In this document: positions 24 through 10,621 of the stretch, piece by piece | How the letters are laid out: each line of letters opens with the position of its first letter | Numbering within the stretch: the stretch's first letter is position 1 | Translations under genes and position numbers: made by a program | NCBI GenBank assembly: GCA_002773945.1 | Contig: PEZT01000001.1 | Coordinates: 71,565 to 130,606 of the forward strand | Source of the DNA: Candidatus Beckwithbacteria bacterium CG10_big_fil_rev_8_21_14_0_10_34_10 | GTDB lineage: Bacteria > Patescibacteriota > Microgenomatia > UBA1400 | Direction: 5' to 3' | Length of the DNA stretch: 59,042 nucleotides | Notes under the pieces: generated by a model | Told to the model about the DNA's origin: nothing | Seen by the model: only the letters and a program-made list of their open reading frames with translations | The model's database searches: none

Positions 24-644
24 ATGAAACGCCTGTTCATTGTGATTGTTTGGCCCTTATTGTTTTTGCTTACTATTTTTTTAAGCTTTTCTCTACTTAA
101 TTATCGGACTAAATATATTCTAAAACAGGTGTTGGCTGAAGAAAATATCAATAATTTTATTAGTCAGTCTTCTTCAAATTCTTTAATTTCGGTTTTGGGT
201 TTAAAAACAGCCTCCGATAAAGTTTATGATCCAACTTATGAAGTAGTTAATAAATATTTAACAAGCTATAAATCACCCATGGCTGAAGAAAGTGATTATT
301 TAGTTAAATATGCTTTAGATTTTGAAATTGACCCCTACTTAATTGGAGCCATTGCCATGTGTGAGACAAATCTGGGCAAAAAGTCTCCTCCTGATTGTAA
401 TAATCCATTTGGATTGGGAGTTTATGGAAAGAAAACATTATGTTTTGATAGTTGGGCCGATAGCTTTCATTTAATGGCCAAAACATTAAGAATAAAATAT
501 TTTGATAGGGGAATGGAAACCCCTGAAGATATTATGGTGGTTTATTGCCCTCAATCCGTTCAAAAAGATGGTGCTTGGGCAAAATGTGTTAATCGGTTTA
601 GGAATGAGCTTGAAGAGTTGGAAAAGCAAATTACCAACCTATAA
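24..644 (+). CDS. Membrane-anchored lysozyme-like/glucosaminidase-type protein
   Basis: N-terminal TM helix; IDPYLIGAIAMCET, NNPFGLG, FDSWADS and YCP motifs resemble CPR glucosaminidase/lysozyme-like domains. Confidence 0.6.
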   Translation: MKRLFIVIVWPLLFLLTIFLSFSLLNYRTKYILKQVLAEENINNFISQSSSNSLISVLGLKTASDKVYDPTYEVVNKYLTSYKSPMAEESDYLVKYALDFEIDPYLIGAIAMCETNLGKKSPPDCNNPFGLGVYGKKTLCFDSWADSFHLMAKTLRIKYFDRGMETPEDIMVVYCPQSVQKDGAWAKCVNRFRNELEELEKQITNL

Positions 645-653
645 CACAGGTTC

Positions 654-682
654 TTGACATATTATAAGTTGTGTGGTATATT
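654..682 (+). promoter_or_regulatory. Sigma70-type promoter
   Basis: TTGACA (654-659), 17-bp spacer, TG-g-TATATT (-10 at 677-682). Confidence 0.55.
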
Positions 683-691
683 TTTCTCTAG

Positions 692-733
692 ATCCATTGG
701 TAAACCTCACCGGGCTTACTGATGGGTTTTTTT
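692..733 (+). terminator. Intrinsic terminator-like hairpin
   Basis: CCATTGGTAA...TTACTGATGG stem with G-U pairs, followed by a T run. Confidence 0.6.
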
Positions 734-870
734 ATGGGTTTTGTTTGGTTAAACTGGATTAATATAGGATAGTTTATTAATAGAAAAGGGCTTTTGGTCA
801 CTAATTAAGTTTGTAAAAAGCTTTGTATAATTGATTTGTCAAATTCTTTATTTAAAGATAAAATAAAGGA

Positions 871-2250
871 GTGTTTATTAGAAATTTTTTTACCATTATT
901 ATCGCTAAGCTTCTTATTTTTTTTCTTAAGTTAACAAAAACCGGGGGAACGGCTGCCCCGGGTCTTTTAGCTTTAAAATTATCGCCTAATCTTTTAAAGA
1001 AATACTTATCTCAACTTGATTATTCCATTCTTATTTCTGGCACAAATGGAAAGACCACCACTAGTCGGATGCTAAGCAATATCTTAAAAGAAGCAGAAAT
1101 AAAATTTTATCATAACCGGGCTGGTTCAAACCTCCTCCGGGGAATTCTTTCTGAATTATTAAAGAATAGTAATTTAAAAGGTAGGCTTGAAAAAAGAATT
1201 GGCCTATGGGAGATTGATGAAGCAGTTTTACCTCAAGCTATTAAAATTATTAAACCCAAAGTGGTGATCATAAACAACTTGTTTCGGGATCAGTTGGACC
1301 GGTATGGAGAAATTGATACCTTAGCTAAAAAATGGCTTGAGGCTTTAAATAAATTATCTTCTAAAACTACTTTAATTATTAATGCTGATGATCCCACTCT
1401 GGCAAATTTAGGCAAAAAGCTAAAAACCAATGTTATTTTTTATGGGATTAATGATTTAAAAATTGGTGGACAAGAATTAAGTCATGCTTCTGATGCTACT
1501 TTATGTCCTTTATGTTTATTACCCTTAAAGTATCAAGCAGTTTATTTATCTCACCTAGGTAACTACAAATGTTCTTCCTGCGGCTTAACTCAACCCCAAA
1601 AACAAATTAAAGCCTTTAATGTCAACTTTAATCAAAATAGCTATTTAGAGTTTAAAATTGTTGCTGAAAAAAAGGAGTATTTTTTAAAAACCAGGCTAAG
1701 CGGCTTATATAATGTTTATAACTTTTTGGCCGGTTTTGGTGCTAGTCTGACTTTAGGTATTACTCCTCAAATTAGTCTTTCTGCTTTAAAAAAGTTTCAG
1801 CCTGTTTTTGGCCGGACGGAAAAAATTAAAATAAAGAATAAAAGCCTTCAAATTTTGTTAGTTAAAAACCCCACTGGCTTTAATGAAATAATTAAAACTT
1901 TAAATTTATTAACTCAAAATAAAAAAGGCTCTTTACTATTAGTTTTAAATGATTTAATTGCTGACGGCCGGGATGTGTCCTGGATTTGGGATGTAGATTT
2001 TGATAATCTTAAAACAAAAAATTTAAGCAATATCTATGTTTCAGGCATAAGATCAGCTGATTTAGCTTTAAGATTAAAATATTCTTTAGATAAAAAAGTA
2101 ATAATTATTTCTGATTTAAAAAAAGCCATTAGGGGATTACTTAAAGAAAAAGATAACCACCTTTTTATTTTACCCACCTATACAGCCATGCTTAAAACAA
2201 GAAAGATCCTTAACCAAATGAAGTTAACTCATTTAAGTTGGCAAGACTAA
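871..2250 (+). CDS. murT: Lipid II isoglutaminyl synthase subunit MurT (Mur ligase + DUF1727)
   Basis: SGTNGKTTT P-loop, NLFRDQLDRYGE, CPLC..CSSC zinc finger, LVKNPTG, DGRDVSWIWD, LPTYTAML. Confidence 0.93.
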   Translation: MFIRNFFTIIIAKLLIFFLKLTKTGGTAAPGLLALKLSPNLLKKYLSQLDYSILISGTNGKTTTSRMLSNILKEAEIKFYHNRAGSNLLRGILSELLKNSNLKGRLEKRIGLWEIDEAVLPQAIKIIKPKVVIINNLFRDQLDRYGEIDTLAKKWLEALNKLSSKTTLIINADDPTLANLGKKLKTNVIFYGINDLKIGGQELSHASDATLCPLCLLPLKYQAVYLSHLGNYKCSSCGLTQPQKQIKAFNVNFNQNSYLEFKIVAEKKEYFLKTRLSGLYNVYNFLAGFGASLTLGITPQISLSALKKFQPVFGRTEKIKIKNKSLQILLVKNPTGFNEIIKTLNLLTQNKKGSLLLVLNDLIADGRDVSWIWDVDFDNLKTKNLSNIYVSGIRSADLALRLKYSLDKKVIIISDLKKAIRGLLKEKDNHLFILPTYTAMLKTRKILNQMKLTHLSWQD

Positions 2251-7351: not shown

Positions 7352-8002
7352 ATGGATTCAATTAATATCTTTTCTTCATCTTCTAAGAAAAAAAAAGGCT
7401 CTCACCAGCCGGTTTCTTTTATTGAGGCTTTAAAAGACATTGGCTCCTCAGTTCAAAAACAAGCTAAAGATGCAACTATTGGTACTGGTAAAGCCATGGC
7501 CGACCAGCTTCTGGGCGGAAATAAGAATTCTGACCAGGTCGGTGATTCAGGCGAACTCCAACCTGAAACACCTTTTAACTTTGAAGACTATTTAAAATCC
7601 CGAGAAAAACAAATAGAACAAGTCCAAAAGCAAAAATTTGAAAGTCGAATCCAAGAAGAAAGATTAGTCTTTCACCGAAAAGAAGAAGAAGCTAAGCTAG
7701 AGATAAAAGCGGTTCAAGAAGAATTGAAAAAACTGGCTGAATCTACCGAAGGTTTATCAGTAGAAATTAAAAAAGCCACTTTTACAGCCACTGTTAATCC
7801 TGGTACTTATCATGAAAACTTTTTTAGCCGAATTAAAAGACTGATTCAACTGGCGCGGAAAAAACTGGTTGAATCTCAAACTTGGTTAGAAAGCTTTAAT
7901 TACCGATCTCAAAGAAAATCAGCTTACTGGGGTGGAGTGAAAAAATCAGGGACTAAATTTATGCTTTCTCAAGAAAGATATACCGCCACTAAAACTGGAT
8001 AA
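7352..8002 (+). CDS. CPR conserved protein (DUF5660-like)
   Basis: NPGTYHENFF and C-terminal YW..VKKSGTKFMLSQERYTAT resemble the family as recalled. Confidence 0.6.
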   Translation: MDSINIFSSSSKKKKGSHQPVSFIEALKDIGSSVQKQAKDATIGTGKAMADQLLGGNKNSDQVGDSGELQPETPFNFEDYLKSREKQIEQVQKQKFESRIQEERLVFHRKEEEAKLEIKAVQEELKKLAESTEGLSVEIKKATFTATVNPGTYHENFFSRIKRLIQLARKKLVESQTWLESFNYRSQRKSAYWGGVKKSGTKFMLSQERYTATKTG

Positions 8003-8009
8003 TTGCCTC

Positions 8010-8038
8010 TTGACAGAAAAAGGATAAATGTCTAGTAT
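8010..8038 (+). promoter_or_regulatory. Sigma70-type promoter for leader/attenuator 1
   Basis: TTGACA (8010-8015), 17 bp, TAGTAT (8033-8038); ATG at 8048. Confidence 0.7.
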
Positions 8039-8047
8039 ATTAAAGTT

Positions 8048-8143
8048 ATGAATAACATTCTCTTATCAACCCAAATTATTAGAAACTTTCATGTCCTTTT
8101 CCTTATTTGGAAGAAAGGCAATGGTTTGGGAGGATTAAAGTAA
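8048..8143 (+). CDS. Putative attenuation leader peptide, 31 aa, Ile/Leu-rich
   Basis: MNNILLSTQIIRNFHVLFLIWKKGNGLGGLK*; its 3' part contains GTTTGGGAGG, the exact complement of 8171-8180. Confidence 0.65.
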   Translation: MNNILLSTQIIRNFHVLFLIWKKGNGLGGLK

Positions 8144-8167
8144 GTTAAAAACAAAAAAATATTTAGT

Positions 8168-8194
8168 AAACCTCCCAAACAAGGGAGGTTTTTT
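8168..8194 (+). terminator. Attenuator terminator 1
   Basis: AAACCTCCC-AAACAA-GGGAGGTTT followed by TTT. Confidence 0.8.
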
Positions 8195-8219
8195 AATGCC
8201 AAAAAGGAGGTGATAATTA

Positions 8220-8435
8220 ATGAATCCTCATGAAGACTATCCAAAAAAACAAAATAGCAACTTGTTCCCAGACATGGATGAAGTTGCTAGAAGATTAGGC
8301 TTTAGCTTAAGTGATCAAAGTCCAGTTATGTGTGGCCCTAATTGCGGCCAAGATTATGATCGAGTAAGTGTTGATGTTCAACCAAGGGGTGAACAATTTA
8401 ATTATGTTGGCAATGGAATACCAGACTTAGCTTAA
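8220..8435 (+). CDS. Hypothetical 71-aa protein
   Basis: Strong SD AAGGAGGTGA; lies between attenuator 1 and the M20 peptidase. Confidence 0.6.
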   Translation: MNPHEDYPKKQNSNLFPDMDEVARRLGFSLSDQSPVMCGPNCGQDYDRVSVDVQPRGEQFNYVGNGIPDLA

Positions 8436-8453
8436 ATATGATATTTTAAAATT

Positions 8454-9518
8454 ATGCTTAATATTACTAAAAATTTAATAAAGTTTGAGTCAGATAAAGA
8501 TCATCCTAAAGAAATTAAAAAGTGTTTTAACTATTCTATTAAACTGCTTTCAAAAAGTGGCTTAAAAGTAAAAACATATTCTTCTAAAGGAAAACTGTCT
8601 TTAGTGGCTGGGAAAAAGATTAAAAAACACTATCAGTATATTCTAAATGGCCATTTAGATGTGGTCCCTGGAGATTATAAGAATGCCTTTAAACCTTACC
8701 TTAAAGGAAGCCGGCTTTATGGTCGAGGCGCTTCTGATATGAAAGGGCCTGTTGGAGCCATGATTAAACTAATGTTAAATCCAGGTCTTAAAGATATTGA
8801 TCTGGGTTTAATCCTAAACACAGATGAAGAGGTTGGTGGATTTGATGGGGCAAACTACTTAGTTAACCAAGGCTATACAGCTGATTGTGTTATTGTTCCT
8901 GATGGGGGAGATAACTTTAATTTAACTTTAGCTGAAAAAGGAGTCCTTCATCTTAAAATTTTGGCTCAGGGAAAATCAGCTCATGCTAGCCGTCCCTGGG
9001 AAGGAGATAATAGTCTGGAAAAGTTATTTATAATATATGAAAAAATTAAAAGAAAGGTTCCTGATACTACTTCTTCTAATCGCTGGTTAGAAACGGTTAA
9101 TTTGGGAAAAATATCAGGGGGATTAGCAGCTAATGTTGTTCCTTCTAAGGCAGAAATGATTTTAGATTTTCGTTATCCTAAAAAGGTCCAAAGAAAGCAA
9201 ATTTTAAACCTATTAAAAAGTGTTTGTCAAAAAGAAACAGGAGTTACATTTAAGATTTTATCTGATGGTCAAACAATGAACACTTCTAAAAACAACAAGT
9301 ATATTAAAAAAATCATTAAGGTGGCAAAGGAAAATAAGGTAAGTTTGAAATTAAATAAAGATCACGGTGCTTCTGACGGTCGATTTTTTTCCGCTAAGGG
9401 AATACCTGTTATAATGTTTAAACCTACTTGCAGTTCAATCCATATAGACGATGAATGGATTGACTTAAAAAGCCTAGAAATATTTTATAGAATTTTAAAA
9501 AGGTTTATGTTAAAATAA
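8454..9518 (+). CDS. M20 family metallo-hydrolase (ArgE/DapE-like)
   Basis: GHLDVVP, LYGRGASDMKG, DEEVGG, GKSAHASRPWEG, GASDGR, H.DDEWI. Confidence 0.9.
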   Translation: MLNITKNLIKFESDKDHPKEIKKCFNYSIKLLSKSGLKVKTYSSKGKLSLVAGKKIKKHYQYILNGHLDVVPGDYKNAFKPYLKGSRLYGRGASDMKGPVGAMIKLMLNPGLKDIDLGLILNTDEEVGGFDGANYLVNQGYTADCVIVPDGGDNFNLTLAEKGVLHLKILAQGKSAHASRPWEGDNSLEKLFIIYEKIKRKVPDTTSSNRWLETVNLGKISGGLAANVVPSKAEMILDFRYPKKVQRKQILNLLKSVCQKETGVTFKILSDGQTMNTSKNNKYIKKIIKVAKENKVSLKLNKDHGASDGRFFSAKGIPVIMFKPTCSSIHIDDEWIDLKSLEIFYRILKRFMLK

Positions 9519-9523
9519 TTTAA

Positions 9524-9598
9524 ATGAAAATTACAAATAAAATTTTTTATAGCAAGTTTTTCTTTTTTAACTTCCAGAAAGAGGAGGTGATTTTGTAG
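9524..9598 (+). CDS. Phe-rich leader peptide (pheL-like), 24 aa
   Basis: MKITNKIFYSKFFFFNFQKEEVIL*: 6 Phe and 1 Tyr codons, then AGGAGGTG complementary to the terminator 5' arm. Confidence 0.78.
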   Translation: MKITNKIFYSKFFFFNFQKEEVIL

Positions 9599-9625
9599 TT
9601 TTTATAATTATTTAAAAATAGATAA

Positions 9626-9649
9626 CACCTCCTAACAAGGAGGTTTTTT
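9626..9649 (+). terminator. Attenuator terminator 2
   Basis: ACCTCCT-AACA-AGGAGGT followed by TTTTT. Confidence 0.8.
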
Positions 9650-9670
9650 ATTGCTTTAAAAGGAGTTTCT

Positions 9671-9859
9671 ATGAACGAAAAATCAGAAAATAATATTTGT
9701 CAGCTACCCTTAGAATCACAGATAAAAGAGATGGTCATTCTAATTGCCTCTACTATAGGAGGAAATCAAGAACTCGCCGAATCAGCCGCCAGAAATCTAG
9801 GCTGTTTACCGGGAGAAATAGAAAATAAAGAGCCTAATAATGGTCGTACCACATATTAA
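9671..9859 (+). CDS. Hypothetical 62-aa protein
   Basis: SD AAGGAG; overlaps the start of the dehydratase gene by 20 nt. Confidence 0.55.
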   Translation: MNEKSENNICQLPLESQIKEMVILIASTIGGNQELAESAARNLGCLPGEIENKEPNNGRTTY

Positions 9860-10412: not shown

Positions 10413-10467
10413 CTGTAACAAATTGACACCGACAAACATAAATTGATAAAATAGGTTGTTGTTAAAA

Positions 10468-10544
10468 GGGCTCGTAGCTCAGTTGGCTAGAGCGTTCGCT
10501 TGACGTGCGAAAGGTCACAGGTTCGAGTCCTGTCGAGCCCACCA
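10468..10544 (+). tRNA. tRNA-Val(GAC)
   Basis: GGGCTCG/CGAGCCC acceptor, TTCGC-TTGACGT-GCGAA, encoded CCA; TTGACA...TG-a-TAAAAT promoter at 10423-10452. Confidence 0.96.
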
Positions 10545-10621
10545 ATAAAAATAAACAGCCTTAGAGATTCTTCTTTCTTTTTTTTGTGTTTACTGATAAA
10601 ATTTTTACAGGAATAATACAG

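Follow-up and report, generated by a model that had tools for sequence, protein, structure and literature searches.

A putative leader-peptide attenuator on a leaderless transcript ahead of an M20 peptidase gene in Candidatus Beckwithbacteria

Leader-peptide attenuators control the branched-chain operons of enterobacteria, with ilvL ahead of ilvGMEDA, ivbL ahead of ilvBN, and leuL ahead of leu. Bacteria of the Candidate Phyla Radiation (CPR), or Patescibacteria, have few recognisable regulators and cannot make most amino acids. We analysed a 59,042-nucleotide stretch of a Candidatus Beckwithbacteria genome (contig PEZT01000001.1; this whole stretch is called the window below) and in it the unit at positions 8010-8219, upstream of an M20-family peptidase gene. 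We give a probability of about 0.8 to the reading that this unit is a transcription attenuator of the ribosome-mediated, leader-peptide type and that its transcript is leaderless; judged by its predicted parts, the unit belongs clearly, and with conservation in relatives, to a CPR-wide family of classical attenuators of a compact variant, in which the leader itself is leaderless and the terminator also serves as ribosome-binding site. Like ilvL, ivbL, and leuL, it has a short open reading frame (ORF) lying over segment 1, predicted 1:2, 2:3, and 3:4 helices that would exclude each other, a U-tailed terminator before the genes, and, as candidate regulatory codons, mixed hydrophobic ones of the kind used in multivalent attenuation. 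Unlike them, its leader stands at or next to the 5' end of the transcript and has no Shine-Dalgarno sequence, the 3' arm of its terminator would bind ribosomes for a start codon that follows 7 nucleotides later, no run of identical codons is present, and its targets are an orphan 71-residue ORF and an M20 hydrolase rather than a biosynthetic operon.

The best Rfam match to the region is the Escherichia coli pheL-pheA leader (Phe_leader, RF01859), and a second unit of the window (9524-9649, the Phe unit) follows the logic of pheL-pheA, its FFFF leader standing ahead of a gene for prephenate dehydratase (PDT). Under permissive settings Phe_leader scored 28.3 bits relative to a gathering score of 55, and His_leader (RF00514) 18.4 relative to 49; these sub-threshold matches spanned the terminator only (for Phe_leader, its stem and U-tract), which is a resemblance of hairpins and not membership. 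Like the T-box (RF00230), the unit would let tRNA charging control aminoacyl-tRNA synthetase or amino-acid genes through a choice between terminator and antiterminator; unlike it, the window element has neither a specifier nor a T-box sequence, and sensing would be by the translating ribosome. Passages of a comparative-genomics study (PMC1262725) describe leader-peptide attenuation for two groups: Actinobacteria, where it precedes trp, ilvB, trpS, and leuS, and gamma-proteobacteria, where it precedes pheST. Units in relatives of the window genome resemble these in standing before genes for ThrRS, HisRS, MetRS, PheRS, LeuRS, and IleRS with matching codon runs; relative to what these passages cover, they differ in belonging to the CPR/Patescibacteria phylum and in that the sampled device spans many amino acids and also precedes hydrolases and many family-less small ORFs. 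According to the title and abstract of a preprint (bioRxiv 10.1101/834739), leaderless polycysteine short ORFs attenuate a downstream operon in mycobacteria; the window unit would resemble them in its leaderless ORF, placed first on a polycistronic transcript, and in candidate amino-acid-specific codons, and differs, as far as that title and abstract go, in its clear terminator/antiterminator pair. A literature search on leader peptides, attenuators, or riboswitches in CPR, Patescibacteria, or Microgenomates found no attenuator paper; in the part seen of one article (PMC11665869), synthetic riboswitches only were mentioned.

The sigma-70-type promoter of the unit agrees with the consensus at 10 of 12 positions and lies 3' of the stop codon of the DUF5660 gene (7352-8002); coordinates of the features are collected in Table 1. 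Its -10 box ends 9 nucleotides before the leader ATG at 8048, upstream of which no GGAG-like motif was found. The 31-residue leader contains 4 Ile and 6 Leu, with Arg, His, Val, and Trp once each, and its stop codon (8141-8143) lies 8 nucleotides past the end of segment 2. Within it and beyond it the sequence is complementary in a way that allows two exclusive structures: GTTTGGGAGG (8124-8133) is a perfect 10-bp complement of CCTCCCAAAC (8171-8180), a pairing that can be extended to 14 nucleotides at 93%, and CCTCCCAAAC at the same time makes up the 5' arm and part of the loop of the terminator hairpin, which reads ACCTCCC (8170-8176), AAACAA, and GGGAGGT (8183-8189), with six T (8189-8194) at its end. 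The original prediction, made from the DNA letters, had named the promoter, the near-leaderless ORF with its Ile/Leu content and its single Arg, His, Val, and Trp codons, the 10-bp antiterminator, and the U-tailed terminator, and all of these were found where it had placed them.

Table 1. Coordinates of the features of the attenuator units and of the genes behind them (window positions unless a locus is given)
Feature	Position	Strand	Remarks
Promoter, sigma-70-type	8010..8038	+	-35 TTGACA 8010-8015, 17-nucleotide spacer, -10 TAGTAT 8033-8038
Leader ORF, 31 codons, MNNILLSTQIIRNFHVLFLIWKKGNGLGGLK	8048..8143	+	near-leaderless, without Shine-Dalgarno sequence
Segment 1, CCCAAAUUAU	8070..8079	+	within codons 8-11 (Thr-Gln-Ile-Ile); pairs with 8121-8130
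Segment 2, AUGGUUUGGGAGG	8121..8133	+	antiterminator 5' strand; translated Gly-Leu-Gly-Gly
Intrinsic terminator (predicted)	8168..8194	+	9-bp stem (8168-8176 with 8183-8191), loop AAACAA, six U 8189-8194
Segment 3, CCUCCCAAAC	8171..8180	+	common to antiterminator and terminator
Segment 4, GGGAGG	8183..8188	+	terminator 3' arm, putative Shine-Dalgarno sequence
Segment 4, 7-nucleotide U-rich spacer, and mini-ORF	8183..8213	+	ATG CCA AAA AGG AGG TGA (8196-8213), MPKRR*
71-residue ORF, first gene past the switch	8220..8435	+	no Pfam or NCBIfam match
M20-family ArgE/DapE-type deacylase/peptidase, 354 residues	8454..9518	+	Pfam Peptidase_M20, M20_dimer
Phe unit, same design	9508..9653	+	extended -10, leader, segments 2/3, terminator
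Phe unit extended -10, TGTTAAAAT	9508-9516	+	plausible; ends 7 nucleotides before ATG 9524
Phe leader, MKITNKIFYSKFFFFNFQKEEVIL	9524-9598	+	FFFF run
Phe unit segment 2, AGGAGGTG	9582-9589	+	paired with CACCTCCT (9626-9633)
Phe unit terminator	9627-9649	+	TTG start (9651) 7 nucleotides past GGAGG
62-residue ORF	9671-9859	+	no Pfam family; conserved, 70-residue ORF of G003 49% identical, E = 3e-10
Prephenate dehydratase, 190 residues	9840-10412	+	PDT domain alone, without usual ACT domain
Fourth-unit downstream ORFs	L173:1566-2288, 978-1532, 580-978	-	TrpB-like halves, then ParB_N-like protein

Folding and chance tests supported these pairings. The 161-nucleotide leader folded at -38.8 kcal/mol relative to -26.95 +/- 3.35 for 200 dinucleotide shuffles (z = -3.54), none of which (0/200) was as good, and when the 60 nucleotides upstream were shuffled 5000 times, 25 shuffles reached the antiterminator duplex score of 26. 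Folded as separate regions, 1:2, 2:3, and 3:4 gave -18.6, -17.4, and -14.5 kcal/mol, respectively, and the minimum-free-energy structure of the untranslated full leader consisted of the 1:2 and 3:4 hairpins (-38.2 kcal/mol). With a ribosome stalled at about codons 17-19, the free 3' RNA was predicted to adopt the 2:3 antiterminator; masking of segment 2, as by a ribosome that has reached the stop codon, left the terminator as the one predicted fold. In these models the helix topology is that of classical four-segment attenuator logic.

We propose that the switch works as follows. Transcription would start 2-3 nucleotides before the AUG at 8048, and a ribosome would load once the 5' end emerges. 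With charged tRNAs ample, the ribosome would reach the stop codon and cover segment 2, the 3:4 hairpin would form, and transcription would terminate at about 8192-8196; if the leader is untranslated, segment 1 would sequester segment 2, with termination as the likely outcome again. A ribosome stalled for lack of charged tRNA before the last third of the leader, for which the candidate sites are the tandem Ile codons 10-11, sitting inside segment 1, and the Leu, Phe, Ile, and Trp codons 17-21, would mask segment 1 and leave segment 2 free; the more stable 2:3 helix would then form first and the polymerase would continue. Read-through would expose the Shine-Dalgarno sequence of segment 4 and the AUG of MPKRR*, so loading ribosomes just before the 71-residue ORF and the M20 gene. 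The anatomy, the folding energies, the conservation in relatives, and the agreement of leader codons with downstream genes are observations; that transcription stops and ribosomes stall there, which amino acid is sensed, and that M20 scavenges (considered below) are inferences.

The arrangement is conserved in relatives. In G003, a genome of the same family and another genus, the region is syntenic with the window and runs tig, DUF5660, unit A, a 91-residue ORF, unit B, an 84-residue ORF, a Phe unit, a 70-residue ORF, PDT, a tRNA, and a Thr unit, the last having a leader with ...TITTTT... followed by a 60-residue ORF and then thrS. The orthologous leader ORFs of units A (MNQKTFQIIINLPISNLIIGKENGLGGVLKI) and B (MSTKNSQTISKIYWVLFIRHQNGLGGRAV) have 31 and 29 codons with the frame kept, and both share a C-terminal NGLGG with the window leader. 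The original prediction had looked to the absence of a conserved leader ORF in relatives as the sign against it; the syntenic retention of the ORF in G003 supports instead its idea of a reusable chassis, and leader ORF, antiterminator, and terminator were kept not only there but also in other families. The segment 2 motif GGUUUGGG[A/G]GG recurs in G003, G013, G056, G008, and G025, and all seven units with the shared segment 2 (7/7) read it in the same frame, as G-L/F-G-G/E. In G008, segments 2 and 3 are identical to those of the window unit and the leader is Phe/Tyr-rich (MLLQTNSFQAFFYFYYFSPSCGLGGKAYTEN); together with codon runs that fit the downstream genes, this bears out the suggestion that the sensing codons change on a constant chassis. 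Segments 2 and 3 in exact form (GGTTTGGGRGG..CCYCCCAAAC) occur in 5 of 286 genomes of the taxonomic order, so that orthologs at the sequence level are few. Attenuators past DUF5660 in other assemblies (L157, L172, L161, and G019) have other stems with the three-way complementarity kept: L157 has the stem CCCCGC/GCGGGG with segment 2 GGGGGTTGG, L172 has CCCGCC, L161 has CCCTCC, and in G019 segment 2 GGAGGTGTGTGTT pairs with segment 3 AACACACACCTCC. A MAFFT alignment of 19 units (A1) placed segment 2 in shifting registers and was therefore unfit for counting covarying pairs; shuffle and permutation tests were used instead.

Across the order, the terminator pattern was present in 169 of the 286 genomes, with the reversed control nearly absent; this tally counts one unpublished genome (G164), from which the other results draw nothing. 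Our family sample held 124 distinct sites with enough upstream DNA (30 loci, 80 further sites, and a few others), all of them chosen by the CCTCC/GGAGG pattern and the sample thus biased to that stem. An ATG ORF of 13-45 codons ending 15-45 nucleotides before the hairpin was found at 88 of the 124 sites, relative to 18.8 +/- 3.8 in shuffles (maximum 29), although 88 is an upper bound because some of these ORFs are evidently the C-terminal ends of longer genes upstream (L089, L117, L118/121/127); the same test anchored in downstream DNA gave 35 of 354. The mean best antiterminator duplex score was 19.0, relative to 12.9 after shuffling of the upstream DNA and to 14.7 where a leader ORF was absent, and the terminator arm of a site paired better with its own upstream DNA than foreign arms did (20.05 versus 16.9; none of 2000 permutations came up to the true figure), figures that overstate significance because related genomes are not independent.

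Leader codons were then compared with the genes that follow. Where 4 or more of 7 codons were Thr, the leader stood before ThrRS in 8 of 8 cases, and five further ThrRS sites had no such Thr run (L041, L085, L145, L146, and L148). Leaders with at least 3 His preceded HisRS in 5 of 7 cases; those in which Met is commonest preceded MetRS in 2 of 3, the third (L098), before HisRS, being a leader in which the initiator Met is counted. All four cysteine-synthase-like PALP genes in the sample (4/4) lay behind CC or CCC leaders. Leaders with at least 4 Phe (n = 16) were found before many Pfam-less proteins as well as PheS/PheT, PDT, a RelA/SpoT homolog, and, with a small ORF in between, ArgRS, and Tyr or aromatic leaders before DAHP synthase with prephenate dehydrogenase and before hisC-like aminotransferases. 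Across the family, the codon content of the putative leaders agrees with the downstream genes. T-box-like leaders were also found before IleRS in relatives (L197:2264-2409, -; L202:2406-2539, -; L204:1238-1400, +), scoring 47-50 bits relative to a gathering score of 93 with E ~1e-8, in 3 of 5 loci searched with E up to 0.01; at gathering thresholds there was no T-box before IleRS in 15 loci of relatives. By eye, several more IleRS loci carry the motif GGTGGTACC. Synthetase genes of this order appear to come under two kinds of switch, T-box-like and leader-peptide.

Two features set the family apart from the textbook arrangement, and both concern where ribosomes would load. The 3' arm of the terminator is predicted to double as the Shine-Dalgarno sequence of a start codon 7 nucleotides downstream. 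In the window, GGGAGG (8183-8188) is followed by UUUUUUA and then by the AUG at 8196 of the mini-ORF MPKRR*, whose stop codon falls within the strong Shine-Dalgarno sequence AAAGGAGGTGA (8203-8213) of the 71-residue ORF; its counterpart in unit B of G003 encodes MPKERR*. At 43 of the 88 family sites with a leader ORF, ATG or GTG stands exactly 7 nucleotides past GGAGG (48 at 6-8 nucleotides), and at any other offset between 9 and 24 nucleotides there are at most 6 sites each. Counting TTG as well, a start 5-9 nucleotides past GGAGG opens an ORF of at most 12 codons at 37 sites, of 13-59 codons at 15, and of at least 60 codons at 15. A segment 4 that serves as a ribosome-binding site would explain why segment 4 is GGAGG, segment 3 CCUCC-like, and segment 2 GGAGG-like in so many units; the near-identical terminator cores are best explained by function, a better explanation than copying, and the CCUCC/GGAGG core shared by the chassis would be a functional constraint. 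If the arm is the ribosome-binding site, read-through and ribosome loading would be switched jointly. The other feature is the start of the leader itself: a Shine-Dalgarno-like motif precedes the ATG in 4 of 88 family leaders, relative to 56 of 111 downstream ORFs, and in 36 of the 49 leaders for which a good promoter lies no more than 40 nucleotides away the -10 box ends 6-12 nucleotides before the ATG, the pattern of predicted leaderless mRNAs. The IleRS gene of the window genome itself (G000, contig C11 474; L175/L180) has TGATATAAT ending 7 nucleotides before its ATG and no Shine-Dalgarno sequence; ordinary genes here may thus be leaderless too.

The cue sensed by the window unit can be narrowed less well than its architecture. 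Ile and Leu are clearer in orthologs and neighbours, as QIIINLPISNLII in G003 and LILSLILIL in L157, and among 13 leaders directly past DUF5660, classed by eye and post hoc, 8 were Ile/Leu-rich, 4 Phe/Tyr-rich, and 1 neither. For calibration, LLL leaders stood before LeuRS in 4 of 24 loci examined and an NNIIIT leader before IleRS in G005, 1 of 29 loci examined. Our best guess, to which we give roughly an even chance, is that limitation for Ile, Leu, or both would be the cue; next in likelihood we place a wider signal, from hydrophobic amino acids or from translation speed in general.

The M20 protein behind the switch, announced as such in the original prediction, has the catalytic domain (PF01546, 3.5e-25) with an inserted dimerisation domain (PF07687, 6.3e-17), and among solved structures it is closest to 2rb7, an M20 peptidase that is itself uncharacterised. 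A terminator scan between 8196 and 9627 found none. All NCBIfam DapE and ArgE models scored under their cut-offs, the best DapE model reaching 195 bits relative to 381. Neither KARI_N, CM_2, DAHP_synth_1, DHDPS, nor DAP_epimerase was detected in the genome (96.7% complete). From the sub-cut-off scores and from the failure to find DHDPS or DAP_epimerase in this genome, we rejected the assignment of M20 as the DapE of a diaminopimelate (DAP) pathway. With no KARI_N found, Ile and Leu must be obtained externally, and the undetected biosynthetic genes make the attenuated enzymes look like last-step or salvage functions. M20 homologs lay past attenuators in 7 genomes, in 3 behind hydrophobic leaders (the window unit, G019 with MTHKHTLLINLVINL, and G005 with MKSSQSLIKFAILFVGDGKGGCCC) and in 4 after hisS with His-type leaders; a His-specific enzyme would fit the hisS linkage in those 4 genomes, and the leaders in the window, G019, and G005 are not His-rich. 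It is plausible, as had been suggested, that a shortage of branched-chain amino acids, or of amino acids in general, would induce M20 as a scavenging peptidase or deacylase, and this idea also agrees with the AstE/AspA-type deacylases behind other attenuators (L037 and L073). These two loci have His-containing leaders (..AYHHNPH.. and ..NHHHN..) before a GNAT-like protein and the AstE/AspA-type enzyme, which is a second kind of deacylase under attenuators, paralleling M20. For the 71-residue ORF, a DRVxVxV motif seen by eye in common with the 84-residue ORF of G003 was not supported (BLASTP E = 2).

Several findings weigh against the attenuator reading or parts of it, in addition to the upper bound and the relatedness of genomes noted with the family figures. 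The window leader has no run of one codon, the stretch 6-42 nucleotides before segment 2 being NFHVLFLIWKKG, and its content of Ile (4 of 31 residues) and Leu (6 of 31) is little above the proteome background (I 8.2%, L 11.6%). The score of the 1:2 helix (8070-8079 with 8121-8130) was equalled by 214 of 3000 shuffles, so that this helix taken singly is not significant; orthologs, including the units of G003 and G056 and loci L063 and L066, have stronger ones, and across the family its mean score was 16.1 relative to 14.0 for shuffles. At gathering thresholds, Rfam returned tRNAs only in the window and no leader family was reached. The 71-residue ORF is an orphan, the protein search having recovered itself alone. 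The link between M20 and such switches is inconsistent: an M20 match was absent from the three same-family genomes searched, and by eye 5 of the 8 closest M20 homologs had no attenuator in the 600 nucleotides upstream.

These points leave room for other explanations of the same DNA. The hairpin might chiefly gate translation and terminate nothing, with segment 3 masking the Shine-Dalgarno sequence in segment 4, the U-tract acting as a spacer, and stalling opening the site with transcript length unchanged. Start codons 7 nucleotides past GGAGG at 43 of 88 sites and ORFs of at least 60 codons opened at 15 would fit such a gate, but the hairpin has the form of a canonical intrinsic terminator, a 9-bp G+C-rich stem and then six to seven U, and in the window the start opens the five-codon mini-ORF only, whereas the 71-residue ORF has an unmasked Shine-Dalgarno sequence of its own. 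We regard gating without termination as unlikely; the two are compatible, and the best explanation holds both. A plainer proposal, that the hairpin is the ordinary terminator of the tig-DUF5660 operon beside an independent promoter, with ORF and complementarity arising by chance in AT-rich DNA, draws on its position 168 nucleotides past the DUF5660 stop codon and on the weakness of the 1:2 helix taken alone; moreover, the hairpin would also halt upstream read-through, because an internal AUG without a Shine-Dalgarno sequence would be poorly translated. Yet the promoter separates the hairpin from the upstream stop codon, the frame, length, and geometry of the ORF are kept in G003 and in other families, and neither the antiterminator score (25 of 5000 shuffles) nor the number of leader ORFs (88 of 124, with 18.8 expected) looks like chance, all of which makes this proposal very unlikely.

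A ligand-, tRNA-, or protein-binding RNA (a riboswitch, a T-box, or a PyrR/TRAP-like element) with an incidental ORF would be in keeping with the T-box-like leaders before IleRS in relatives (3 of 5 loci, 47-50 bits versus 93). We rate it as extremely unlikely for the window unit, where no Rfam match reached its gathering score and the sub-threshold ones were confined to the terminator; the RNA between the segments is A-rich and without conservation, reading frame and complementarity being conserved instead, and leader codons track the downstream gene across the family. As for a functional hydrophobic micro-protein whose gene the hairpins merely end, its chance seems to us close to negligible: the core VLFLIW is hydrophobic enough, but conservation of the peptide among orthologs is limited to the NGLGG encoded by segment 2 while the remainder varies freely, and the ORF lacks a Shine-Dalgarno sequence and overlaps all elements of the switch.

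If the attenuator reading holds, CPR/Patescibacteria would reuse textbook attenuation in compact form and aim it at synthetases, salvage steps, and scavenging hydrolases. It would also offer a sequence-only route from leader to physiological cue for function-less genes such as the M20 gene, the 71-residue ORF, and the Pfam-less proteins of about 500 residues described below, and portable amino-acid-specific switches for the genetic tools under development in CPR bacteria; the value of the single window unit is more modest. More tentatively, and at somewhat less than even odds, one modular RNA device may run much of the amino-acid-shortage response in CPR bacteria of this order, with the window unit as a multivalent Ile/Leu (hydrophobic) sensor. 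Such a device would combine a leaderless leader peptide, exchangeable sensing codons, and a terminator that carries in its 3' arm the ribosome-binding site of the following frame, one stall gating both transcription and translation, and its targets would include aminoacyl-tRNA synthetases, the last-step salvage enzymes PDT, hisC, and TrpB-like proteins, scavenging hydrolases (M20), and many family-less small proteins.

The 1.03-Mb genome holds four such units, the window unit included. CCTCC-N3-9-GGAGGTTTT occurs 3 times in it, each time 5' of genes, with 0 occurrences of the reversed control; the genome-wide CCTCC/GGAGG search that the original prediction had proposed as a check thus gave 3 sites, each with a leader ORF. 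A de novo hairpin-plus-T-run scan (48 sites genome-wide) recovered these three and added the fourth. No attenuator was found before IleRS, LeuRS, or a third class-I synthetase (probably ValRS) of this genome.

In the Phe unit, the -10 was missed by the simple promoter scan because a -35 box is absent. The likeness of its terminator to that of the window unit, to which attention had been drawn earlier, amounts to 79% ungapped. The M20 stop codon (9516-9518) ends 5 nucleotides before the Phe leader ATG at 9524, and transcripts from 8045-8048 that pass the first switch would run into this second one, where either re-initiation on its leader or termination by default may follow, making double gating of the Phe unit possible. 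The 62-residue ORF and the prephenate dehydratase behind it overlap at their junction by 20 nucleotides. A unit on contig C27 has the leader MKQITISAYYWHYTSLRGAGSFVV, with YYWHY, followed by hisC (TIGR01141, 289.8 bits relative to a cut-off of 276.55). The leader of the fourth unit, MKNLNLINQIIWWTRSFW, has three Trp codons (WW..W) and a TrpB-like PLP gene behind it, split into ORFs of 241 and 185 residues that cover model positions 2-237 and 249-429 of 441. This unit lies on the minus strand of G000 contig C1 at about 62361 (leader and terminator, L173:2362-2443), with the stem GCCTCTGTTT...AAACAGGGGC and a U-tract, and the first 11 codons of its leader resemble those of the leader at 8048, with Q-I-I in both.

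Among relatives, the Phe-rich leader MVNVLSFSFFFSFPNRGGSRL stands before a RelA/SpoT-type gene (HD_4 + RelA_SpoT); the loci are L097 (G064:C94), L103, and L104 (G070, G071). Also among these loci are poly-Phe leaders before an ORF of 82-85 residues and then ArgRS, where leader codons mismatch the synthetase. At L051, L063, L079, L081, L082, and L087, Pfam-less proteins of about 500 residues, or cut by the end of the locus, start 7 nucleotides past the terminator arm, behind leaders of the Ile/Leu type or the Phe type.

In the window, a TTGACA-18-TAAAAT promoter and a tRNA gene (10468-10541) occupy 10423-10585, directly 5' of thrS (10586); the window genome seems to have no thrS switch, unlike the syntenic region of G003. 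Small ParB_N-like proteins (116-133 residues; L056, L057, and L173:580-978) accompany attenuated PALP genes, standing before the cysteine-synthase-like genes in two relatives and after the TrpB-like gene in the window genome.

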